Of a stretch of DNA of 28,543 bases, positions 15,283-24,381 are shown piece by piece. The notes beneath the pieces were generated by a model. That model saw only the letters and a list, made by a program, of their open reading frames with translations, searched no databases and was not told the DNA's origin. A program made the position numbers and the translations under genes. This stretch comes from Ignavibacteria bacterium (GTDB lineage Bacteria > Bacteroidota > Ignavibacteria > Tepidaquicellales > Tepidaquicellaceae): positions 1-28,543 of the forward strand of contig JBAZEQ010000001.1 of the NCBI GenBank assembly GCA_041653855.1. Direction: 5' to 3'. Each line of letters begins with the position of its first letter. The stretch's first letter is position 1.

Positions 15283-15831
15283 ATGGAAAATATCAAACGT
15301 ATTCCATTTGCAGATGCAGTACATAAATATTTTGCAAATGAAACCGGAGAGATATTTGTAAGAAAAAACTCCGAACTTAAATTAGTTACTCAGTACCATA
15401 GCAATAAACGAGACGGTAAACTCGGTGTAAAAATACTCACAAAAAAAAGAGGTTATGTATTTTGGTATGTTGACAAACTTATTATGTGGGCTTTTCACGA
15501 AAGAAAAGGATACGATTATATTATAGTGCATAAAGACAACAATTTAGAAAACAACAACAAAGACAATTTATGTTACAAGAAAGAAAAAAATATAAGTTGT
15601 AAAGTAAGAGGAAATTTATTCAACAGACTGAGCGATTCTGAATTTAAGATTTATACAGATACACTCGACAGAATCCCGAAAATCAATCACGAAAGATTTA
15701 ATATGAAAGCACTGCAACAATATAACAGATTCGTAGCACATCTTAAAAGTAGTGATTTAACAAAAAGGTATGAGAAATTGAAAGAAATATTTAGTAAATT
15801 AGAAGAAAAATACAGGAAGGAAATATTATAA
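15283..15831 (+). CDS. divergent HNH (HNH_3-like) protein
   Basis: YFANETGEIF...YVDKLIMWAF...VHKDNNLENNNKDNL follows the phage HNH layout. Confidence 0.6.
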   Translation: MENIKRIPFADAVHKYFANETGEIFVRKNSELKLVTQYHSNKRDGKLGVKILTKKRGYVFWYVDKLIMWAFHERKGYDYIIVHKDNNLENNNKDNLCYKKEKNISCKVRGNLFNRLSDSEFKIYTDTLDRIPKINHERFNMKALQQYNRFVAHLKSSDLTKRYEKLKEIFSKLEEKYRKEIL

Positions 15832-16226
15832 TGGAAGAAAATAAACCAAAACAAGAAAATCCTCTCGACAAAATGATGAACTTAAATTTAAAGTTTCATC
15901 TAATAGGATTAATGAATACAGCAACACTGCTATCAATCCGTATCGAGCATATAAAAATCTACGGACAGAGCAAAAGAACTATTCATTTATCCGAAAAAGA
16001 ACTGTTTATGTTTAATACAGAAGTTGCTTACTACGAAGAATATTTGAAGTATATAATTGAAGTATTCGACAGTTCAGAAGAAGAAAAAATAGAAATCGCA
16101 AAGATAGTGCATTACTGCGAAGTGAAGATGGGAATAAGAACTTACATAAACATAGTAGCCGAAGGCAATAAAAGAAAAGGAAAAATAACTCAACTCAGGA
16201 ACATAATTGTCCCGAGAAAGAATTAA
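15831..16226 (+). CDS. hypothetical protein
   Basis: TAATG coupling with the upstream gene. Confidence 0.65.
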   Translation: MEENKPKQENPLDKMMNLNLKFHLIGLMNTATLLSIRIEHIKIYGQSKRTIHLSEKELFMFNTEVAYYEEYLKYIIEVFDSSEEEKIEIAKIVHYCEVKMGIRTYINIVAEGNKRKGKITQLRNIIVPRKN

Positions 16227-16452: not shown

Positions 16453-16661
16453 AGTATAGAAGAAAATGGAATAAATATCAAGAGTTATATTATAAAGGGA
16501 TTTATCCAAAATTAGGATATATGTTTGGGTTGAAAGATTTTATAAATATAACAAGAGCAATAAGAAACTCATTTGAAACTGAAAAGCACATAGATTATGC
16601 GATACAAATGGAAGGTGAAAAAATCGAGATATTATTAGACAAGCGAAAAATTATTAAATAA
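16449..16661 (+). CDS. hypothetical protein
   Basis: ATGA overlap with the upstream gene. Confidence 0.55.
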   Translation: MKYRRKWNKYQELYYKGIYPKLGYMFGLKDFINITRAIRNSFETEKHIDYAIQMEGEKIEILLDKRKIIK

Positions 16662-16697
16662 TCACTATTTTTACAATAAACGAAAATTAAAAATTCA

Positions 16698-16726
16698 TTG
16701 AATATTTTAACAATATATGCTATTTT
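16698..16726 (+). promoter_or_regulatory. putative sigma70-type promoter
   Basis: TTGAAT-N17-TATTTT in an intergenic AT-rich gap. Confidence 0.45.
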
Positions 16727-16733
16727 GAGATTA

Positions 16734-16849
16734 GCAGCAGGGATTAGACTTTTTTTATTATACAAGACCCTTATAGAAAGTCGAAGTTTTAAACATCAAA
16801 GTTTAAATCTTGCTGCAACGACTTATATAGGGGATTCTTGTTTTAAGGA
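16734..16849 (+). promoter_or_regulatory. structured 5' leader 1 (two competing inverted-repeat pairs, A-B-A'-B')
   Basis: A 16734-16750 pairs with A' 16800-16816. B 16762-16783 pairs with B' 16819-16841. Followed by TTTAAGGA SD. Confidence 0.55.
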
Positions 16850-16856
16850 TGTAAAT

Positions 16857-17393
16857 ATGGAAGAAGAAATTTGGAAAGACGTAATAGGATTTGAGGGATT
16901 ATATCAAGTATCTAATTACAGTAGGGTAAAAAGTTTAGAAAGAAAAAGAAACTCATTAAGTAATTCAAAAGCACCTGTTTACGAAAAAATATTAAAACAG
17001 AACATTACTAATATTGGTTATTACAGAGTAGTCTTGTATAAAGACAGTGTTAAAATGTACCGTAACGTGCATCGTCTTGTTGCTTTAGCTTTTTTACCTT
17101 ACACAGAGGGCGAAGTTGTTAATCATATTAACGGAATTAAAACCGATAATTCATTAAGTAATTTAGAATTTGTAACTTCTTCTGAAAACAATCATCACGC
17201 TTATAAGACAGGGTTAAAAAGTAATAAAGGTGAAAAGCAAAGCAGGTCAGTATTAAAAGAAAAAGATGTTAAGATTATTAAATATTATTTAAGTATAGGG
17301 ATTAAAGAAAAACTCATTGCTTATGCGTTTAATGTTTCTAAAGGTTGTATATTTGCAATAAAGACCAACAGAACTTGGAGTGATGTAAAATGA
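16857..17393 (+). CDS. NUMOD4-HNH homing endonuclease
   Basis: True start is likely ATG 16857 after SD AAGGA: EIWKDVIGFEGLYQVSN (NUMOD4), VHRLVALAF, VNHINGIKTDNSLSNLEF, C-terminal HTH-like tail. Confidence 0.9.
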   Translation: MEEEIWKDVIGFEGLYQVSNYSRVKSLERKRNSLSNSKAPVYEKILKQNITNIGYYRVVLYKDSVKMYRNVHRLVALAFLPYTEGEVVNHINGIKTDNSLSNLEFVTSSENNHHAYKTGLKSNKGEKQSRSVLKEKDVKIIKYYLSIGIKEKLIAYAFNVSKGCIFAIKTNRTWSDVK

Positions 17394-17893
17394 AAAAACA
17401 ACTTAACTATTACCAACTTTACTATGCGAAGTATAAAGAAATGGGGGGGCATATTTTAGGTGAACGAAACGGTAATAATTATAAGGTATTAAAGACAATC
17501 ACAATTCCAAATTATGCTAAGAATCCTCGTAATCATTATGAATTACCAAACTTTTTTCAAGTAATAACTAACAAGAAATGTTTAGTAAGTTGGTATAAAA
17601 TTTTAAGAGACATATTAAAAAGTTGGGATAAAAAAGAAAAGAAATTTAAAATAGTTATTTTGGGGGATTGGCATTCGCATATATGTAAAAAACTTATCCC
17701 TTCAGGGGAAGATATAATCACGTCTCAAAAAACAGCAAACATAACGAATAAACTATATGTGCTTGGTATTTGCAGTAGAGATTTAAAGTCAGGGAAAATG
17801 ATATTTAATTTCTACGATTATAAACCAACTAAAGTAAATAAATATTTACCGAAAGATTATAAAAAAAGATTACAAGAAAATGAAAAACAATAA
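17390..17893 (+). CDS. stand-alone JAB/MPN+ (JAMM) metalloprotease
   Basis: EMGGHILG, and GDWHSHICKKLIPSGED matches E..HxH-x7-S-x2-D exactly. Confidence 0.75.
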   Translation: MKKQLNYYQLYYAKYKEMGGHILGERNGNNYKVLKTITIPNYAKNPRNHYELPNFFQVITNKKCLVSWYKILRDILKSWDKKEKKFKIVILGDWHSHICKKLIPSGEDIITSQKTANITNKLYVLGICSRDLKSGKMIFNFYDYKPTKVNKYLPKDYKKRLQENEKQ

Positions 17894-18041
17894 TTGGACA
17901 GAAAAAGCATTTATGGATTGGTGTTATTCTTTAAAACCAAACAAAAAACATTTTCTTAAAAATATACTAAGAAAACTCTATGAATTACTGTAACAATACT
18001 CAAATAGACCCTGCGGTGTGTTCAACAGTTTTCGTTAACCG

Positions 18042-18081
18042 AACTCCATTATTCCTTGCAGGAAGGAATAATACAAGAGTT
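18042..18081 (+). other. hairpin in intergenic region upstream of the small terminase
   Basis: ATTATTCCTT-GCAGG-AAGGAATAAT is a perfect 10-bp stem (18048-18072), extended by AACTC/GAGTT. Confidence 0.5.
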
Positions 18082-18140
18082 TCTAATAAGTTTTCTTTTG
18101 TGAAGGGTTGAATATCCTGCTCATAGATTTATAAAATATA

Positions 18141-18923
18141 ATGGCAAAAACAAAAATAAATAAAAAGAAAATAAATCCTATTGTAAGATTTAAAGGGAAA
18201 GAGAGAACGAACAGTATTCTTTTTGCTAAAAGAGGGACAAAGAAGTTCAAGAAAGGATATAAAATAAATCCTCACGATGCAGGGACTTTTCTTCCGCAAG
18301 CTAAAGTACCTGTTTTAGAGCGACTAAAAACCAATCCGCAGTACAAAGAAAAAATGGAAGAATTTATTGTAGGGATTTATGAAGGAAAAACATTAACTGA
18401 ACTCGGAAAAATTGTAGGGATATCAGCAGTAGCAGTATATAAATGGTTAGCAGATGAAGAATTTCAAAAAACATTTGTTTCGCTAAGACGTGCAGGAGCT
18501 ATAAGTCTTGTACCATCACTTATAAGAAGTGCTAAAGGTGAAGATATACAGGAAACCGAAACAATAACAGAAACTAAAACAGCAAAAGGGAAGACAAAAG
18601 TTAAAAAATATATTACAAGAGTTTATCCGAATCCTGCATCACTTAAATTAGCACTAAATAGTTTTTACCCCGAAGTATTCACAGAACGAACACAAGTAGA
18701 TATGAATACACAAAATGTAAGTGCAGTATTTTTAATCCCATCATCCGGGAACGGAAAAGCAGTATTACCACCACACTTACAAGAAAACATTACCGAAGCA
18801 GATATAAAGAAGTTAAAAGAACTAAATCCGAATGCAATTATTCCCGATGAATTAATACAGCAACTTAAAAACAGAAGCAATGGCGGTAATGGTAATGGTA
18901 ATGGTAACGGAAGCAAAACTTAA
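18141..18923 (+). CDS. putative terminase small subunit
   Basis: HTH GKTLTELGKIVGISAVAVYKWL, helical oligomerisation-like middle, position upstream of terL. Confidence 0.6.
   Translation: MAKTKINKKKINPIVRFKGKERTNSILFAKRGTKKFKKGYKINPHDAGTFLPQAKVPVLERLKTNPQYKEKMEEFIVGIYEGKTLTELGKIVGISAVAVYKWLADEEFQKTFVSLRRAGAISLVPSLIRSAKGEDIQETETITETKTAKGKTKVKKYITRVYPNPASLKLALNSFYPEVFTERTQVDMNTQNVSAVFLIPSSGNGKAVLPPHLQENITEADIKKLKELNPNAIIPDELIQQLKNRSNGGNGNGNGNGSKT
18885..18908 (+). repeat. (GGTAAT)3-GGTAAC microsatellite encoding Gly-Asn tail
   Basis: Directly visible at the 3' end of the putative terS. Confidence 0.85.
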
Positions 18924-18981
18924 TCAAGAAAATAAAATCTCTATAATAAAGTAGAAACTAAAAAAAACGAAAGGATACAAA

Positions 18982-19179
18982 ATGGAACTAAAAGTAAGAT
19001 TCACAAATCCCGACCAAACAGGAGCGGAAGATGGACAAACAGCAGTACAGGAAGCAACAATCAATGTTCCTGATGGAACAACATTGGAAACAGTGCAAGA
19101 TGCGTTGGATAATGCTTTAACACCGTTGACTGATGGCGGTATAAAACCTGTATGGATGTTGCTTTATACACCTGACTAA
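18982..19179 (+). CDS. small acidic protein, possibly beta-grasp-like
   Basis: SD AAGGA upstream. MELKVRF...ATINVPDGTTLETVQDAL pattern. Confidence 0.6.
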   Translation: MELKVRFTNPDQTGAEDGQTAVQEATINVPDGTTLETVQDALDNALTPLTDGGIKPVWMLLYTPD

Positions 19180-19187
19180 AAATCTTT

Positions 19188-19371
19188 AATTTCAAAGAGG
19201 GAACAATTTAAGCACTTGGAACATTTAATTAATTACACATTATTAACTAATAACTCACAAATGAGTAAGTTATTCGCTTAAATCCCGGAAACTACGCAAG
19301 TATGTCAATATTACTTAGGTTGAGGCACAACTACGGAATGAACAACGCAAGGTAGTTCCCCTTTGAAAATT
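19188..19371 (+). ncRNA. candidate structured RNA element
   Basis: TTTCAAAGAGGGAAC pairs with GTTCCCCTTTGAAA (14 bp, 1 bulge) and encloses several internal hairpins. No family recognised. Confidence 0.3.
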
Positions 19372-19385
19372 TAAAAATAAAAATT

Positions 19386-19568
19386 ATGACAATTTTAGAT
19401 AGTTTAGACCCCGACAAACAACTCGCTCGATATAATAAGAAACGTAAAAAATTAGCAATGTTAAAAAAGAAACGTGGGAGTATAAGAAATTATGGAATAG
19501 GCGGAAGTAAAACTGTATTACTTGGAATGAATCATCAATTAAAAAATATACGACTGAGGTATAAATAA
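19386..19568 (+). CDS. small basic hypothetical protein
   Basis: 60 aa, K/R-rich. Confidence 0.5.
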   Translation: MTILDSLDPDKQLARYNKKRKKLAMLKKKRGSIRNYGIGGSKTVLLGMNHQLKNIRLRYK

Positions 19569-19747: not shown

Positions 19748-21343
19748 ATGCCGGATTACGTTATTGATTGGAACACTCGTGAACTCAGGATGGTAGTTAA
19801 ACCGCAAAAAGGCGGACAGGAAGAATATTTAAAAATTCCTCTTAATGTATTTGAAGCACTATATTATGGGGATATAGGTTCAGGTAAGAGTTGGAACTTG
19901 GTTATTGACGCATTAGGATTACAATATGAAGGCACGATAGGGAAAAAAGCAATTGACTTTCCGAACTATAAAGGATTTCTATTCCGCAGAACTTCTAAAA
20001 GATTAAACAAATTAGTTGATGAGTGCAAATCGTTCTATGGTTATTATGGCGGAGTATATGCAGGGACCAAACAGAACGAACCGGGAAGTAGTTTTACATT
20101 CCCTTCAGGAGCAAGAGTATTCTTATGTTATATGGAACACGAAAAAGACAAGTTCAACTATCACGGTGAAGAAGCACAATTTATGGGATTTGATGAAATA
20201 ACAGAATTTCTTATAACTCAGTATAGTTTTCTATTTTCAAGATGCAGAAGCACATTACCCGGTATAACTCCACGTATAAGAAGCACTGCAAATGCAATTG
20301 GACTTGGTTTAAAATGGGTAAGAAACAGATTTATATATAAAAATCCAATTGGATTAGTAAAATATTTTCTTCCACCTAAAGACATCGAGAAAGACCCCCG
20401 GGGGCAAGAAGTAAAACAAGGTACTCCGAAATCATTATCGAGGATGATAATTCACGGAAAGATTAATGACAACAAAATATTATTGAATAACGACCCTGAT
20501 TATTTGGATAGAATTTATGCAATGGGAGAGAAATATGTAAAAGCACTATTACAGGATGATTGGTTTGCATTTGAAGGACAGGCATTTGATAAACTATCTC
20601 GTAAAATTCACTTAGCTCAACCTCTTGATATTCCGAAACATTGGAAACGAATTGCAGGATTAGATTATGGAAATGTTGCTGCGTTGGAATGTTTGGCATT
20701 CGACCCGGATACAATAACAAGCAGTAATCCGATGGGAAACGGATATTTCTTCGATGAATGGACATCGGATAACCAGGAGAGAGACACAGAAATTGACAGC
20801 TTAAAATACTACCTAAAAGAAAACGGATTAAAAGACATTACAATTGCATACGATACTGATATGGAAAGTACAGACAGTAAAGTAAAAACAAACAAAACCG
20901 CAGCTTGGTATTTTAAACACGATACAAAATACGGATTCAAATTAAAGATGGTCCCGGTATCAAAAGGAAGAATCGAAACAAATGTAAACTTTAGAATCAG
21001 TTGTAACAGAGAATTTTGGAATAGATTGGATTGGAAGAAAAGCGAAAATGGATTATGGCTTAAAAAACCAAAACTATTCTTTTTAGCAAAAGAAAAATTT
21101 ACAATCCCGGATGAAGCAGTGGCTAAGTGTGATAATCTATTTGAAAGTATGTTTGATTTAATGGATGACCCGAACATTCCCGAAGATATACTTAAACCAA
21201 AAGACGGTGGAGTACCTGACCATCACTACGCAGCAGGTAGATACGCACTTATAACCGGAGTATATCGAGGTGAACTAACCGAAGAACAAGTCAGTGAATT
21301 AGAAGAAGAAAACAGGCAAGACTTTATAGAAAGTGTGGTATGA
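19748..21343 (+). CDS. terL: terminase large subunit
   Basis: YYGDIGSGKS Walker A, GFDEITEF Walker B, RSTAN coupling motif, AGLDYG nuclease Asp, C-terminal DHHYAAGRY. Confidence 0.9.
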   Translation: MPDYVIDWNTRELRMVVKPQKGGQEEYLKIPLNVFEALYYGDIGSGKSWNLVIDALGLQYEGTIGKKAIDFPNYKGFLFRRTSKRLNKLVDECKSFYGYYGGVYAGTKQNEPGSSFTFPSGARVFLCYMEHEKDKFNYHGEEAQFMGFDEITEFLITQYSFLFSRCRSTLPGITPRIRSTANAIGLGLKWVRNRFIYKNPIGLVKYFLPPKDIEKDPRGQEVKQGTPKSLSRMIIHGKINDNKILLNNDPDYLDRIYAMGEKYVKALLQDDWFAFEGQAFDKLSRKIHLAQPLDIPKHWKRIAGLDYGNVAALECLAFDPDTITSSNPMGNGYFFDEWTSDNQERDTEIDSLKYYLKENGLKDITIAYDTDMESTDSKVKTNKTAAWYFKHDTKYGFKLKMVPVSKGRIETNVNFRISCNREFWNRLDWKKSENGLWLKKPKLFFLAKEKFTIPDEAVAKCDNLFESMFDLMDDPNIPEDILKPKDGGVPDHHYAAGRYALITGVYRGELTEEQVSELEEENRQDFIESVV

Positions 21344-21963: not shown

Positions 21964-22754
21964 CAAACTATTTGAATAAAATATTAACAGGCAGAGCAGA
22001 AATCGTTTTAAAAGATTTCCCGGACAATTGCATTGATTTGGTTGTTACGTCTCCCCCTTATGATGGTATAAGAAGTTATGAAGGATATATCTTTGATTTT
22101 CCACTGATAGCAGAGCAACTATTCCGAACACTAAAAGTTGGCGGAGTTATTGTGTGGATAGTATCAGATGAAACAACAGACGGGAGCGAATCCTGTACAT
22201 CTTTTAAACAAGCACTGCATTTTAGGTCCCTTGGATTAAAACTTCACGATACAATGATATGGAGAAAATCTTCACCACCGCTTTCTCATAACAGATACGA
22301 ACAGCACTTTGAATATATGTTTGTGTTTAGCAAAGAATACGTAAAGACGTTTAATGCTATCAAAGAACCGAAACTTTATATGGATAACAGAAAAGTTAAA
22401 GATTATAGAAGAAACGTAAAAGAAGGATGTGATAACGGATTTATAGGACAGCAAAAAGATAAAATAAAAGGAAACATTTGGGATATTCCGGTAGGTGGCG
22501 GAATAACTACACCGGATAAAGAAGCATACGAGCATCCTGCTATATTCCCGGACAAACTTGCAAAAGACCATATATACAGTTGGAGTAATGAAGGTGATGT
22601 TGTTTTGGACCCGATGTGTGGAAGCGGAACAGTCCCGAAAATGGCGAAACTTCTACATAGAAACTACATTGGTATAGACATAAGCAAAAAGTATTGTGAG
22701 TTAGCAATTAAAAGAATTAATAAACATAAAATACCAAATGAACTCTTTAGATAA
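21960..22754 (+). CDS. orphan amino-DNA methyltransferase, beta class (SPPY, probably m4C)
   Basis: VTSPPY, HPAIFP, LDPMCGSGT. TTG start overlapping the upstream TGA. Confidence 0.9.
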   Translation: MTNYLNKILTGRAEIVLKDFPDNCIDLVVTSPPYDGIRSYEGYIFDFPLIAEQLFRTLKVGGVIVWIVSDETTDGSESCTSFKQALHFRSLGLKLHDTMIWRKSSPPLSHNRYEQHFEYMFVFSKEYVKTFNAIKEPKLYMDNRKVKDYRRNVKEGCDNGFIGQQKDKIKGNIWDIPVGGGITTPDKEAYEHPAIFPDKLAKDHIYSWSNEGDVVLDPMCGSGTVPKMAKLLHRNYIGIDISKKYCELAIKRINKHKIPNELFR

Positions 22755-22965
22755 TTGTAAGCATTGGAAAAAAGATTCTTTCCTGAAAAACTACGGTACT
22801 TGTAGTAAGAAAACAAATATATGTCAACCCGGCAATACAAGACGAGAACCAATTGCATCAAACGACAGTAGCTTTCAAGGTAGCAGATTAAAATTAAAGA
22901 GAGACTTCAGAGAAATAGAACTCGTAAAAGAAGGTTGTAATTGTATGTATAAAAAAAACACTTGA
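22738..22965 (+). CDS. small Cys-containing hypothetical protein
   Basis: NCKHW...GTC...C...CNC pattern, overlapping the MTase end. Confidence 0.5.
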   Translation: MNSLDNCKHWKKDSFLKNYGTCSKKTNICQPGNTRREPIASNDSSFQGSRLKLKRDFREIELVKEGCNCMYKKNT

Positions 22966-22990
22966 CATTTAATTATGTATATAGTAGATT
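22962..22990 (+). promoter_or_regulatory. sigma70-type promoter
   Basis: TTGACA-N17-TAGATT. Confidence 0.65.
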
Positions 22991-22993
22991 GTA

Positions 22994-23134
22994 GTAGCTG
23001 AAGAAAACAAATGAACCAAAATTTTAAAATAAAATTATCTAAGCACTCTATAAGGAATCAATACAAAGTTCACACATCACAAAAGACTATTGTATTCTTC
23101 AGCAACTTATATGAGTGCTTGGTATTTTAAGGAG
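22994..23134 (+). promoter_or_regulatory. structured 5' leader 2 (A-B-A'-B')
   Basis: A GTAGCTGAAGAAAACAA (22994-23010) matches the reverse complement of A' 23090-23106 at 15/17. B 23029-23054 pairs with B' 23106-23129, abutting SD AAGGAG. Confidence 0.6.
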
Positions 23135-23139
23135 AGAAA

Positions 23140-23499
23140 ATGACATTATTAGAAGAAAGAGAATTAAAAAAGGGGAAAGAATTGGAGAGTGATATTTCGT
23201 CTGCAAAAAAAAGATTAGAAAACGCTCAATTTATTTATTCTTATTGTGTTGAGGATAAATACAATATGTGTAAAAGTAATTACAGCGATAGAATAGATTG
23301 TCCGAATGAGAGGGTGGTGATAAAAGCAGAGAATAGAGATAGCAGCAAGGTTATTTATTTAAAAGATAAAAACATAAGTAAAGTATTTCTTCAGCTTATT
23401 GTTACAAAGTATGAAGAAGAACTTGCAAAACTCGAAAAAGAGTTTGCTGAACTCCCGGCAGAGATAAGTGAAAACAAAGAAGTAGATCCAGATGCCTAA
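23140..23499 (+). CDS. hypothetical protein
   Basis: Strong SD AAGGAG. Coiled-coil ends around a Cys-containing core. Confidence 0.7.
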   Translation: MTLLEERELKKGKELESDISSAKKRLENAQFIYSYCVEDKYNMCKSNYSDRIDCPNERVVIKAENRDSSKVIYLKDKNISKVFLQLIVTKYEEELAKLEKEFAELPAEISENKEVDPDA

Positions 23500-23676
23500 A
23501 ATAAAATATCATTAATAACTAAAGAAGGAGAGAGTATGAAGAAATAAAAAGTTAAAAGTAGAATATTTATCGAAAACTCAGTACAAAGCATTAAACAATT
23601 AAAATATTATAAGCTATGGAGAAGATAAGAAGTCCTACTAAATGAGATAAAAATATAAAAAAAGAACGATAGAACT

Positions 23677-23711
23677 AAATCCCACTACAAATTAATAGTG
23701 GGATTTTTTTT
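23677..23711 (+). terminator. intrinsic terminator
   Basis: AAATCCCACTA-CAAATTAA-TAGTGGGATTT stem followed by a T run. Confidence 0.8.
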
Positions 23712-23862
23712 ATGCGAAAATAAGCAATTTTTGAGGGGGAGAGAGTGGGAGAGGTTAAAATAAGGAATTTTCACAGGAAATAAATTTTGTTAGACAAAAG
23801 ATTTTATTTGATTTATTGATTATTTTTGTAGTATTATTTTATTAATTAAAATATTTACTACA

Positions 23863-24381
23863 ATGAAGAAGTCATTCAGAAATTTCACAATCATTTTTAC
23901 AATACTATTTGTATTGGTTTTAGCATTTATCACATCACAAACAAAAGAAGTAAAGGCAGACCGGCAGACCTCAGCCTGGTTACAAAAACACATCATTGAC
24001 AGTTTGATTACAGGAGATAGTATTCTTGTAATAGACTGTACCTTTCAACAGAACGTAGATTGGTATGATAATGTTGAATTCACTTTAAAAGGGAACGGAG
24101 CAACATCGCAAACCGACAGTGCAGACACAGTAAAAGTATATTCATTTCATACAAACGGAGCAGGAGATACTATCAGGTCAGTTCCGGTAGCAGTCACAAA
24201 CTTAGCAACACTCACACAAACGAAACCGGGAATATTAGCAATAGCAAACGGAACATATTCAAGATTTAAGTTTGAAGGTGATATACATTATTACTATGTT
24301 TTTGTATGGGATAACAAATCATCAAAGAATATAATCATAGATTATGCAATGAAGAAAAGCACATACACAAAGTATTATTAA
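23863..24381 (+). CDS. exported/membrane-anchored beta-rich protein
   Basis: MKKSFRNFTIIFTILFVLVLAFITS signal/TM segment, beta-strand-rich mature part. Confidence 0.75.
   Translation: MKKSFRNFTIIFTILFVLVLAFITSQTKEVKADRQTSAWLQKHIIDSLITGDSILVIDCTFQQNVDWYDNVEFTLKGNGATSQTDSADTVKVYSFHTNGAGDTIRSVPVAVTNLATLTQTKPGILAIANGTYSRFKFEGDIHYYYVFVWDNKSSKNIIIDYAMKKSTYTKYY

Follow-up and report, generated by a model that had tools for sequence, protein, structure and literature searches.

A structured 5′ leader in a phage-like Ignavibacteria contig, most likely a divergent paralog of the leader of an HNH endonuclease cassette

What is the role of the 174-nt gap that separates a 75-aa open reading frame (ORF; 22738-22965) from a 119-aa ORF in a phage-like contig of an Ignavibacteria bacterium? 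The contig (JBAZEQ010000001.1 of assembly GCA_041653855.1) was analyzed as one whole of 28,543 bp, here called the window, and belongs to a 2.47-Mb assembly that is 69% complete with a GC content of 33%; every gene in the window lies on the plus strand, and its own GC content is 31%. The original prediction, made from the sequence alone, held that this gap (leader 2) repeats the architecture of a second leader (leader 1) about 6 kb away, and that the two point to a possibly undescribed family of phage cis-regulatory RNAs. Leader 2 is most likely a real, selected and cis-acting structured leader and a divergent paralog of leader 1. Our tentative reading of its function is that this paralog forms the structured 5′ leader of a promoter-gene-terminator cassette, in which it would throttle expression as a cis-acting attenuator.

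All elements of the proposed layout, TTGACA-N17-TAGATT, A, B, A′, B′, TTTTAAGGA and ATG, were found within 22962-23142, and leader 1 possesses the identical helix order as well as the junction GCAAC(GAC)TTATAT (16815-16828) and TTTTAAGGA (16841-16849) (Table 1). The complementarity of A and A′ is real but slightly longer than first described, with 16 of 18 positions pairing and A′ reaching 23107 rather than 15 of 17 with A′ ending at 23106. If transcription begins near 22997, the trimmed A retains 14 nt, which are 93% complementary. The B:B′ stem is likewise real, residues 23039-23054 pairing with 23106-23111 and 23113-23122 (16 bp, one bulged U), but the wider limits given originally (23029 and 23129) add only weak A-U pairs. 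A′ terminates in CAGCAAC, which the nested fold turns into a 5-nt bulge (23101-23105). The 3′ strand of the inner helix belongs to A′ in leader 2, and A and the inner 5′ strand therefore compete for A′. The leader also contains a 39-codon ORF, which spans B, the inner helix, A′ and B′ and whose ATG lies 20 nt past the −10 box. An A-tract precedes the promoter-like site, the −35 hexamer of which overlaps the stop codon of the 75-aa ORF, and about 145 nt separate this site from the 119-aa gene.

Comparison with dinucleotide shuffles reveals that these pairings exceed chance. The best single helix of leader 2 scored 32 against 19.2 ± 2.9 in the shuffles (p 0.002), while its two crossing ungapped helices scored 56 against 27.6 ± 13 (0/500). 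Leader 1 has a crossing-helix score of 52, with p 0.004 for both the single-helix and the crossing test. When the 1136 natural 149-nt windows of the contig were ranked by the crossing-helix score, which serves as a ranking within the contig and not as an absolute test, leader 2 came first and leader 1 second. After correction for GC content the fold energies of the leaders lie at z −3.3 and −3.0, within the contig's four most structured 120-nt loci. The proposal that both leaders share an architecture beyond chance is thus upheld, with shuffle p values of 0.004 or lower and the top two of 1136 places.

Table 1. Features of leader 2, leader 1 and their surroundings (positions in the window).
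Feature	Position	Strand	Remark
Promoter-like site: TTGACA (22962-22967), 17-nt spacer, TAGATT (22985-22990)	22962-22990	+	10/12 match
A, 5′-terminal segment of leader 2	22993-23010	+	complementary to A′
A′ of leader 2	23090-23107	+	complementary to A at 16/18 positions
B, 5′ strand of the lower stem of the rod hairpin	23039-23054	+	
B′, 3′ strand of the lower stem	23106-23122	+	bulged U at 23112
Inner (upper) helix of the rod	23055-23057 with 23098-23100; 23060-23070 with 23085-23096	+	
U-rich tract TATTTT (23123-23128), Shine-Dalgarno AAGGAG (23129-23134), 5-nt spacer	23123-23139	+	
TTTTAAGGA in leader 2	23125-23133	+	main ATG at 23140
39-codon leader ORF	23011-23130	+	ATG abuts A; TAA within TTTTAAGGAG, 9 nt before main ATG
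Orphan 119-aa ORF behind leader 2	23140-23499	+	
Strong intrinsic terminator closing the leader-2 cassette	23677-23714 (hairpin 23677-23706, then T run)	+	11-bp stem, 8-nt loop
Leader 1	16662-16856	+	precedes HNH ATG at 16857
Helices of leader 1	A 16734-16752; B 16762-16783; A′ 16798-16816; B′ 16819-16841	+	followed by TTTTAAGGA and HNH ATG
NUMOD4-HNH endonuclease gene	16857-17393	+	NUMOD4 and HNH_3 matches
Large terminase gene	19748-21343	+	

The relationship between the two leaders is not apparent from plain sequence comparison: nhmmer gave no cross match, and the best Smith-Waterman alignment (26/37 ungapped, from A′ to the Shine-Dalgarno sequence) had a p of 0.13. Covariance models were built from leader 2 (R1), from leader 1 (R2) and from the kissing-loop family described below (R3; hairpin 1, outer stem, hairpin 2). 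The second-best match of R1 in the window is leader 1, aligned over its full length with the start codon in register (22.8 bits, E 7e-4), and in the 2.47-Mb assembly leader 1 is the only other match at E 1 or better (E 0.059). Nothing comparable was found by R1 over 150 related genomes. The reverse match, R2 to leader 2, is weaker (13.7 bits, E 0.66, third-ranked), and is the best plus-strand non-self match of that model. When the two leaders are aligned by sequence, their helices are out of register with each other; with two sequences only, no valid covariation can be drawn from them, and the compensatory changes suggested by RNAalifold were set aside because of the differing registers. The covariance-model check that accompanied the original prediction links leader 2 to leader 1, but provides neither further homologs of leader 2 nor valid covariation. 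We conclude that the likeness of the two leaders is real, and that it rests on their architecture and a short shared 3′ segment.

Searches for known RNA classes gave no identity for either leader. Rfam 15 gave no match at gathering thresholds over the whole window, and at permissive E-values over 22900-23900 and 16600-19450 it gave chance-level matches only, none of them on the leader folds. A group I intron, riboswitch, tRNA-like or ribozyme identity was rejected, as neither Rfam nor ARAGORN returned a match. Exact and degenerate patterns of leader 2 matched viral contigs only at places rejected by both R1 and R2, the two models found no leader-2 homolog over the loci of relatives, and when the A′ motif and the B′ tail were combined into one pattern, this returned more than 117 mostly random matches and no new member.

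A comparable design was encountered in other phages. Viral contigs encoding relatives of the window's HNH protein were retrieved and the regions upstream of these genes were folded, and several proved to contain strong hairpins ending in U-runs immediately before the ATG. Pattern searches yielded nine copies on seven contigs (IMG/VR loci L044-L050, two copies each in L045 and L050), all built alike: a TAnnTTTG box comes first, then a small hairpin, then a GC-rich outer stem with another hairpin inside it, and finally 5-8 U directly ahead of the start codon. Both hairpins have loops of 7 nt. We take the box to be the Bacteroidota −7 promoter element. There are three versions with exactly complementary loops (GUUGCAG/CUGCAAC, GGUCGAG/CUCGACC and GUACGAG/CUCGUAC). 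In the alignment of this family (A9) 97.9% of the cells are paired and 11 pairs are changed on both sides; for the helix between the loops the figure is 100%, all 7/7 pairs being kept and 4/7 showing changes in both strands, against 34-48% paired in slid controls. These counts stem from three independent lineages only. No Rfam family matches the kissing-loop loci, no description of this leader class was found in the literature searched, and a search of 185,579 species genomes did not turn up the motif. The copy in L048 precedes a gene whose N-terminus does not begin like those of the HNH genes. HNH leaders of another type were seen in L021 (1395-1510) and L025 (1395-1510), where a TAnnTTTG box is followed by a terminator-like stem, an internal segment of which can pair with bases located beyond the U-run; this pairing covaries between the two loci (GCUGACA/UGUCAGC in L021, UCCGACA/UGUCGGA in L025).

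The kissing-loop leaders and those of the window agree in the sequence of promoter, 5′ A, outer stem B, inner A′, B′, U-run and start codon, in the pairing of A with A′ inside the B:B′ hairpin, and in that a phage genome has several of them, which differ in their private pairing sequences. In leader 2 the corresponding outer stem, U-rich tract and start are found at 23039-23122, 23123-23128 and 23140. The two kinds of leader differ in that A and A′ of the family are 7-nt hairpin loops, whereas in the window A is a linear stretch at the 5′ side whose 16-19-bp helix must displace the inner hairpin; A′ of leader 2 consists of the 3′ strand and bulge of the inner helix, and the complementary 7-nt loops that mark the family are not found there. 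Leaders 1 and 2 also lack the conserved internal-loop motif and GC-rich stem of the family, the promoter of leader 2 is of the TTGACA type rather than a TAnnTTTG box, and its gene is an orphan and no endonuclease, whereas leader 1 precedes a NUMOD4-HNH gene as in the family. At the level of sequence, leader 1 shares with L019/L045 the motif TGCTGCAAC and the tail GGGGATTC...TTTTAAG.ATG, and its 3′ half, from the A′ motif to the ATG, gave a local score of 27 with version 1 against 16.2 ± 2.1 in shuffles (p 0.001); leader 2 showed no similarity to four family members (p 0.81-0.98). Leaders 1 and 2 are design relatives of the kissing-loop class and not members of it, and leader 1 is in addition a partial sequence relative.

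Phages closer to the window throw light on the setting of both leaders. The closest relative retrieved, L002, has a terminase that is 77% identical and stands alongside the fragments L003 and L004; a metagenome scan gave relatives at 37% or less. L002 is without both leaders. At the place of leader 2, however, L002 and L004 possess an A-tract and a −10 box that is spaced by 17 nt from a TTGACA, the latter again overlapping a stop codon, and approximately 36 of the 52 positions in this promoter block are identical at the same genome position. In both, an ATG follows 25 nt after the block with different cargo behind it, and the ATG of the leader-2 ORF aligns with this first post-promoter ATG. 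Since scanning for the consensus gave no enrichment by itself (61 sites seen, 70.7 expected), the conserved block is the best support for the promoter. The 75-aa ORF was considered as a homolog of the small ORF that occupies its position in L004, but the two are not detectably homologous; only the promoter DNA is. Behind the conserved promoter L004 (3060-3744) and L002 (12627-13734) carry a 20-codon ORF and then, in another frame, a small HNH-like reading frame; this offset suggests a frameshift or an unusual start. Further downstream both have a long pentapeptide-repeat-like gene built of near-identical 15-nt units.

The cassette of leader 2 thus comprises a promoter-like site, the leader, a single gene and a terminator, and its place is the variable region that follows the genes for the terminase and the methylases. 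Morons are promoter-gene-terminator cassettes inserted between conserved phage genes, and the leader-2 cassette resembles them in having its own promoter, one accessory gene and a strong terminator in a variable region, with relatives that carry different cargo behind the same promoter; a long structured leader is no defining trait of morons. Leader 1 and its HNH gene (16662-17393) are absent from the syntenic site of L002 (6002-6448), which lies between homologs of 15831-16226 and the JAB gene, and leader 1 is therefore part of an HNH cassette that was inserted. The arrangement would fit a free-standing homing endonuclease cassette that entered recently, right in front of the JAB gene. A minimal ATG-TAA "start-stop" is present at 16849-16854, between the Shine-Dalgarno sequence of leader 1 and the HNH ATG.

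The assembly permits a guess at the promoters of the host. A Shine-Dalgarno core was found upstream of only about 15% of long ORFs in the assembly, the SusD family had no match in the 2.47 Mb, and TTGACA-N16-18-TAnnnT occurs upstream of genes 18 times compared with 4 in coding controls. Together these suggest that the host probably uses sigma-70-type promoters, unlike the phages that bear the kissing-loop family.

One critical question is how such a leader might act. The predicted free energy of the A:A′ duplex is −17.7 kcal/mol in leader 2 and −21.0 kcal/mol in leader 1, that of the inner hairpins it displaces −5.8 and −5.6 kcal/mol, respectively, and that of the B:B′ duplex of leader 2 −19.2 kcal/mol. 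Comparing duplex with inner-hairpin energies, the nested rod and the A:A′ plus B:B′ pseudoknot should be of similar stability. Cross pairs of A and A′ between the leaders reach only −6.0 and −8.5 kcal/mol, and cognate pairing is thus specific. When the rod is nested, A′ displays its 3′ end (GCUGCAA in leader 1, AGCAA in leader 2) as a bulge, a plausible nucleation site. According to our tentative reading, the leader RNA would fold as a rod with B:B′ as the lower stem, an upper helix and the U-rich tract right before the Shine-Dalgarno sequence. A, the first bases of the transcript, could displace the inner 5′ strand and pair with A′, resulting in a pseudoknot approximately equal in stability to the nested fold. 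Rod and U-tract would constitute a weak intrinsic terminator, that is an attenuator, such that only some transcripts reach the gene; the partner chosen by A′ would set the speed at which B:B′ closes and hence the fraction of read-through, and pairing of A would also hide the 5′ end of the transcript. We infer transcription from the leader-2 promoter, termination at the U-tract and a regulatory effect. Attenuation is preferred because the hairpin of the HNH family is terminator-like (5-8 U) and the rod of leader 2 also ends in a U-rich tract.

Precedents are found in T4-type phages, in which hairpins and terminators throttle the homing endonuclease genes I-TevI, I-TevII, I-TevIII, segB, mobE and seg43(25) (PMC2988022). 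There, stable RNA structures and weak terminators right before or within selfish nuclease genes hold expression down, a design that the leaders described here would share. In seg43(25), as in leader 2, the hairpin lies immediately ahead of a ribosome-binding site; that of seg43(25) is unsequestered (PMC2988022), that of leader 2 predicted to be free. Most T4 hairpins instead mask the ribosome-binding site, and a late promoter located within the hairpin circumvents them (PMC2988022), whereas leader 2 has a Shine-Dalgarno sequence that is predicted free, no evident internal promoter, and a second, crossing helix. The predicted unpaired probabilities of the Shine-Dalgarno bases are 0.55-0.80 in leader 2 (0.21 for the first base) and 0.63-0.85 in leader 1. 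Since these bases are mostly unpaired, T4-style sequestration is unlikely.

Several observations weigh against the attenuator and against the family. The hairpin of leader 2 (−24 kcal/mol) is much longer than typical terminators, its U-tract is short (5 U in 8 nt), and the terminator scan, which allowed loops of up to 8 nt, did not call it. A:A′ overlaps B or B′ by 2 nt only, so that it is no classical antiterminator, and with its Shine-Dalgarno sequence predicted free the fold poses no obvious block to translation. The transcription start near 22997 is a prediction only. A search by blastn against phage records, like the patterns and models above, gave no homolog of leader 2, and for this reason leader 2 itself offers no covariation test; R3, run over the window with filters off and a cutoff of E 10, matched neither leader. 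The proposal of an undescribed phage leader family consequently holds in part: neither leader matches Rfam, R1 finds leader 1, and a family with the order A-B-A′-B′ covaries in other phages, but leader 2 has no homolog and R3 misses both leaders.

The absence of homologs also bears on the idea that the leaders have no selected function, being chance complementarity in an AT-rich spacer or leftovers of the recombination that inserts cassettes. In its favor, the sequence similarity of the two leaders is not significant alone, the whole-leader minimum free energy lies only about 2 standard deviations below dinucleotide shuffles in both leaders (z about −2), an inverted repeat of 16 nt at 94% identity also occurs within a coding region, and crude crossing scores of 48-64 were obtained at unrelated places in other, GC-richer contigs. 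This explanation is nevertheless quite unlikely, given that the leaders rank first and second of 1136 windows with shuffle p values of 0.004 or lower, that the R1 match to leader 1 is unique in the assembly and unparalleled in 150 related genomes, and that leader 1 is homologous to a covarying family. If the fold is selected, it may govern how long the mRNA persists and not how much of it is made. Intercistronic RNase III sites occur in early RNAs of T7 and SP82, and the interrupted rod of about 30 bp could be such a site, or the paired 5′ end a stabilizer. The rod, a shape common to both leaders, amounts to approximately two helical turns with internal loops just 5′ of the ribosome-binding site, and A begins a few nucleotides from the predicted transcription start. 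RNA processing would, however, leave the conserved private A:A′ pairing and the U-tract unexplained, and the hairpin of the related family has clear terminator features; we regard it as decidedly unlikely. Leader-derived immunity RNAs are known from P4 (CI) and P1 (c4), and transcripts ending at the U-tract might similarly give an RNA of about 130 nt that pairs with other copies or targets in trans, which would explain why the copies in one genome bear differing "addresses". Cognate and cross pairings do differ sharply within the window, and in phages with two kissing-loop versions the cognate loops form 7/7 pairs and the cross combinations 4-5/7. But the window contains no complementary target longer than 11 nt elsewhere, and with both partners on one RNA action in cis is simpler, which makes a trans-acting role very improbable.

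Translational gating is the serious rival, if on our analysis still rather doubtful. Here the 39-codon ORF would be translated, and the 119-aa gene would need ribosomes that cross the fold and terminate on its Shine-Dalgarno sequence; A:A′ would hide the start of the ORF and so switch the cassette off. The positions of its ATG, next to A and at the place where L002 and L004 begin the first ORF after the same promoter, and of its TAA in TTTTAAGGAG are those expected. Leader 1 has a frame that is open for 59 codons and in frame with the HNH gene (p 0.019), and version-1 HNH leaders (e.g., L045:6560-6620) keep an ORF of 17-18 codons through the fold, from the outer stem to just after the U-run, which stops 1-17 nt before the main ATG and remains in frame in both the 5-T and the 8-T variants. 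Such a mechanism has a precedent in IncI1 and IncB plasmids, in which a leader peptide (repY) and a pseudoknot control repZ/repA (PMC8053102, with reference to Asano and Mizobuchi 1998 and to Praszkier and Pittard 2002). Common to both are a short leader ORF, putative in leader 2, that ends at the initiation region of the main gene and long-range pairing between a 5′ element and a segment close to that region. Leader 2 differs in showing no antisense RNA gene, in having A′ about 22 nt upstream of the Shine-Dalgarno sequence and not adjacent to it, and in an A:A′ pairing that would hide the start of the putative leader ORF instead of activating the main gene. Other points speak against gating. 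The length of the 39-codon open frame is by itself not significant (p 0.12), no clear Shine-Dalgarno sequence precedes its ATG, and the putative leader peptide has no homolog with which coding constraint could be compared; the main gene has a strong, predicted-free Shine-Dalgarno sequence of its own, and versions 2 and 3 of the family are without a leader-ORF ATG. The cis-acting attenuator continues to be our preferred, tentative reading.

The gene behind leader 2 gives few clues. Its 119-aa product is the sole member of its cluster (5.8 billion proteins, 1.84 billion representatives) and had no Pfam or PHROG match; the AlphaFold2 model, of medium confidence (mean pLDDT 67), consists of a helix, a small sheet and a helix, and had no Foldseek match at E 0.001 or better. 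The upstream 75-aa ORF is likewise a singleton. Elsewhere the window encodes two N6/N4 DNA methylases and many genes without known function. Following GC correction, the two most structured 120-nt stretches of the contig are 2941-3090 (z −4.2), at the 5′ end of a 1505-aa ORF, and 19051-19170 (z −3.35), at the 3′ end of a 65-aa ORF. Two other long non-coding gaps, 17894-18140 (247 nt) and 19180-19385 (206 nt), are GC-richer than their surroundings; neither has an Rfam match, and their crossing-helix scores are merely average.

Phage accessory and selfish genes require low or timed expression, and to our knowledge little is known of how this is achieved outside T4. Two non-identical leaders, one of them tied by homology to a covarying class, suggest a portable module of RNA control whose sequence can be exchanged wholesale provided that its pairings are kept, and to this leader 2 adds a version with a long 5′-end helix, a sigma-70-type promoter and non-nuclease cargo. 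A bolder idea, which we consider unlikely, is that these leaders and the kissing-loop leaders belong to a single superfamily, in which portable modules of promoter, pseudoknot and attenuator travel along with selfish nuclease genes and other accessory cassettes among phages of different hosts, with private A:A′ "addresses" that avoid cross-talk since the leader RNA would also act in trans in an immunity-like manner. Were that the case, leader 2 would show that a loop-loop kiss can evolve into an extended strand-invasion helix. If the portable module is what it appears to be, it would supply a compact and orthogonal set of natural RNA regulators, and also a marker for mobile cassettes in phage genomes.

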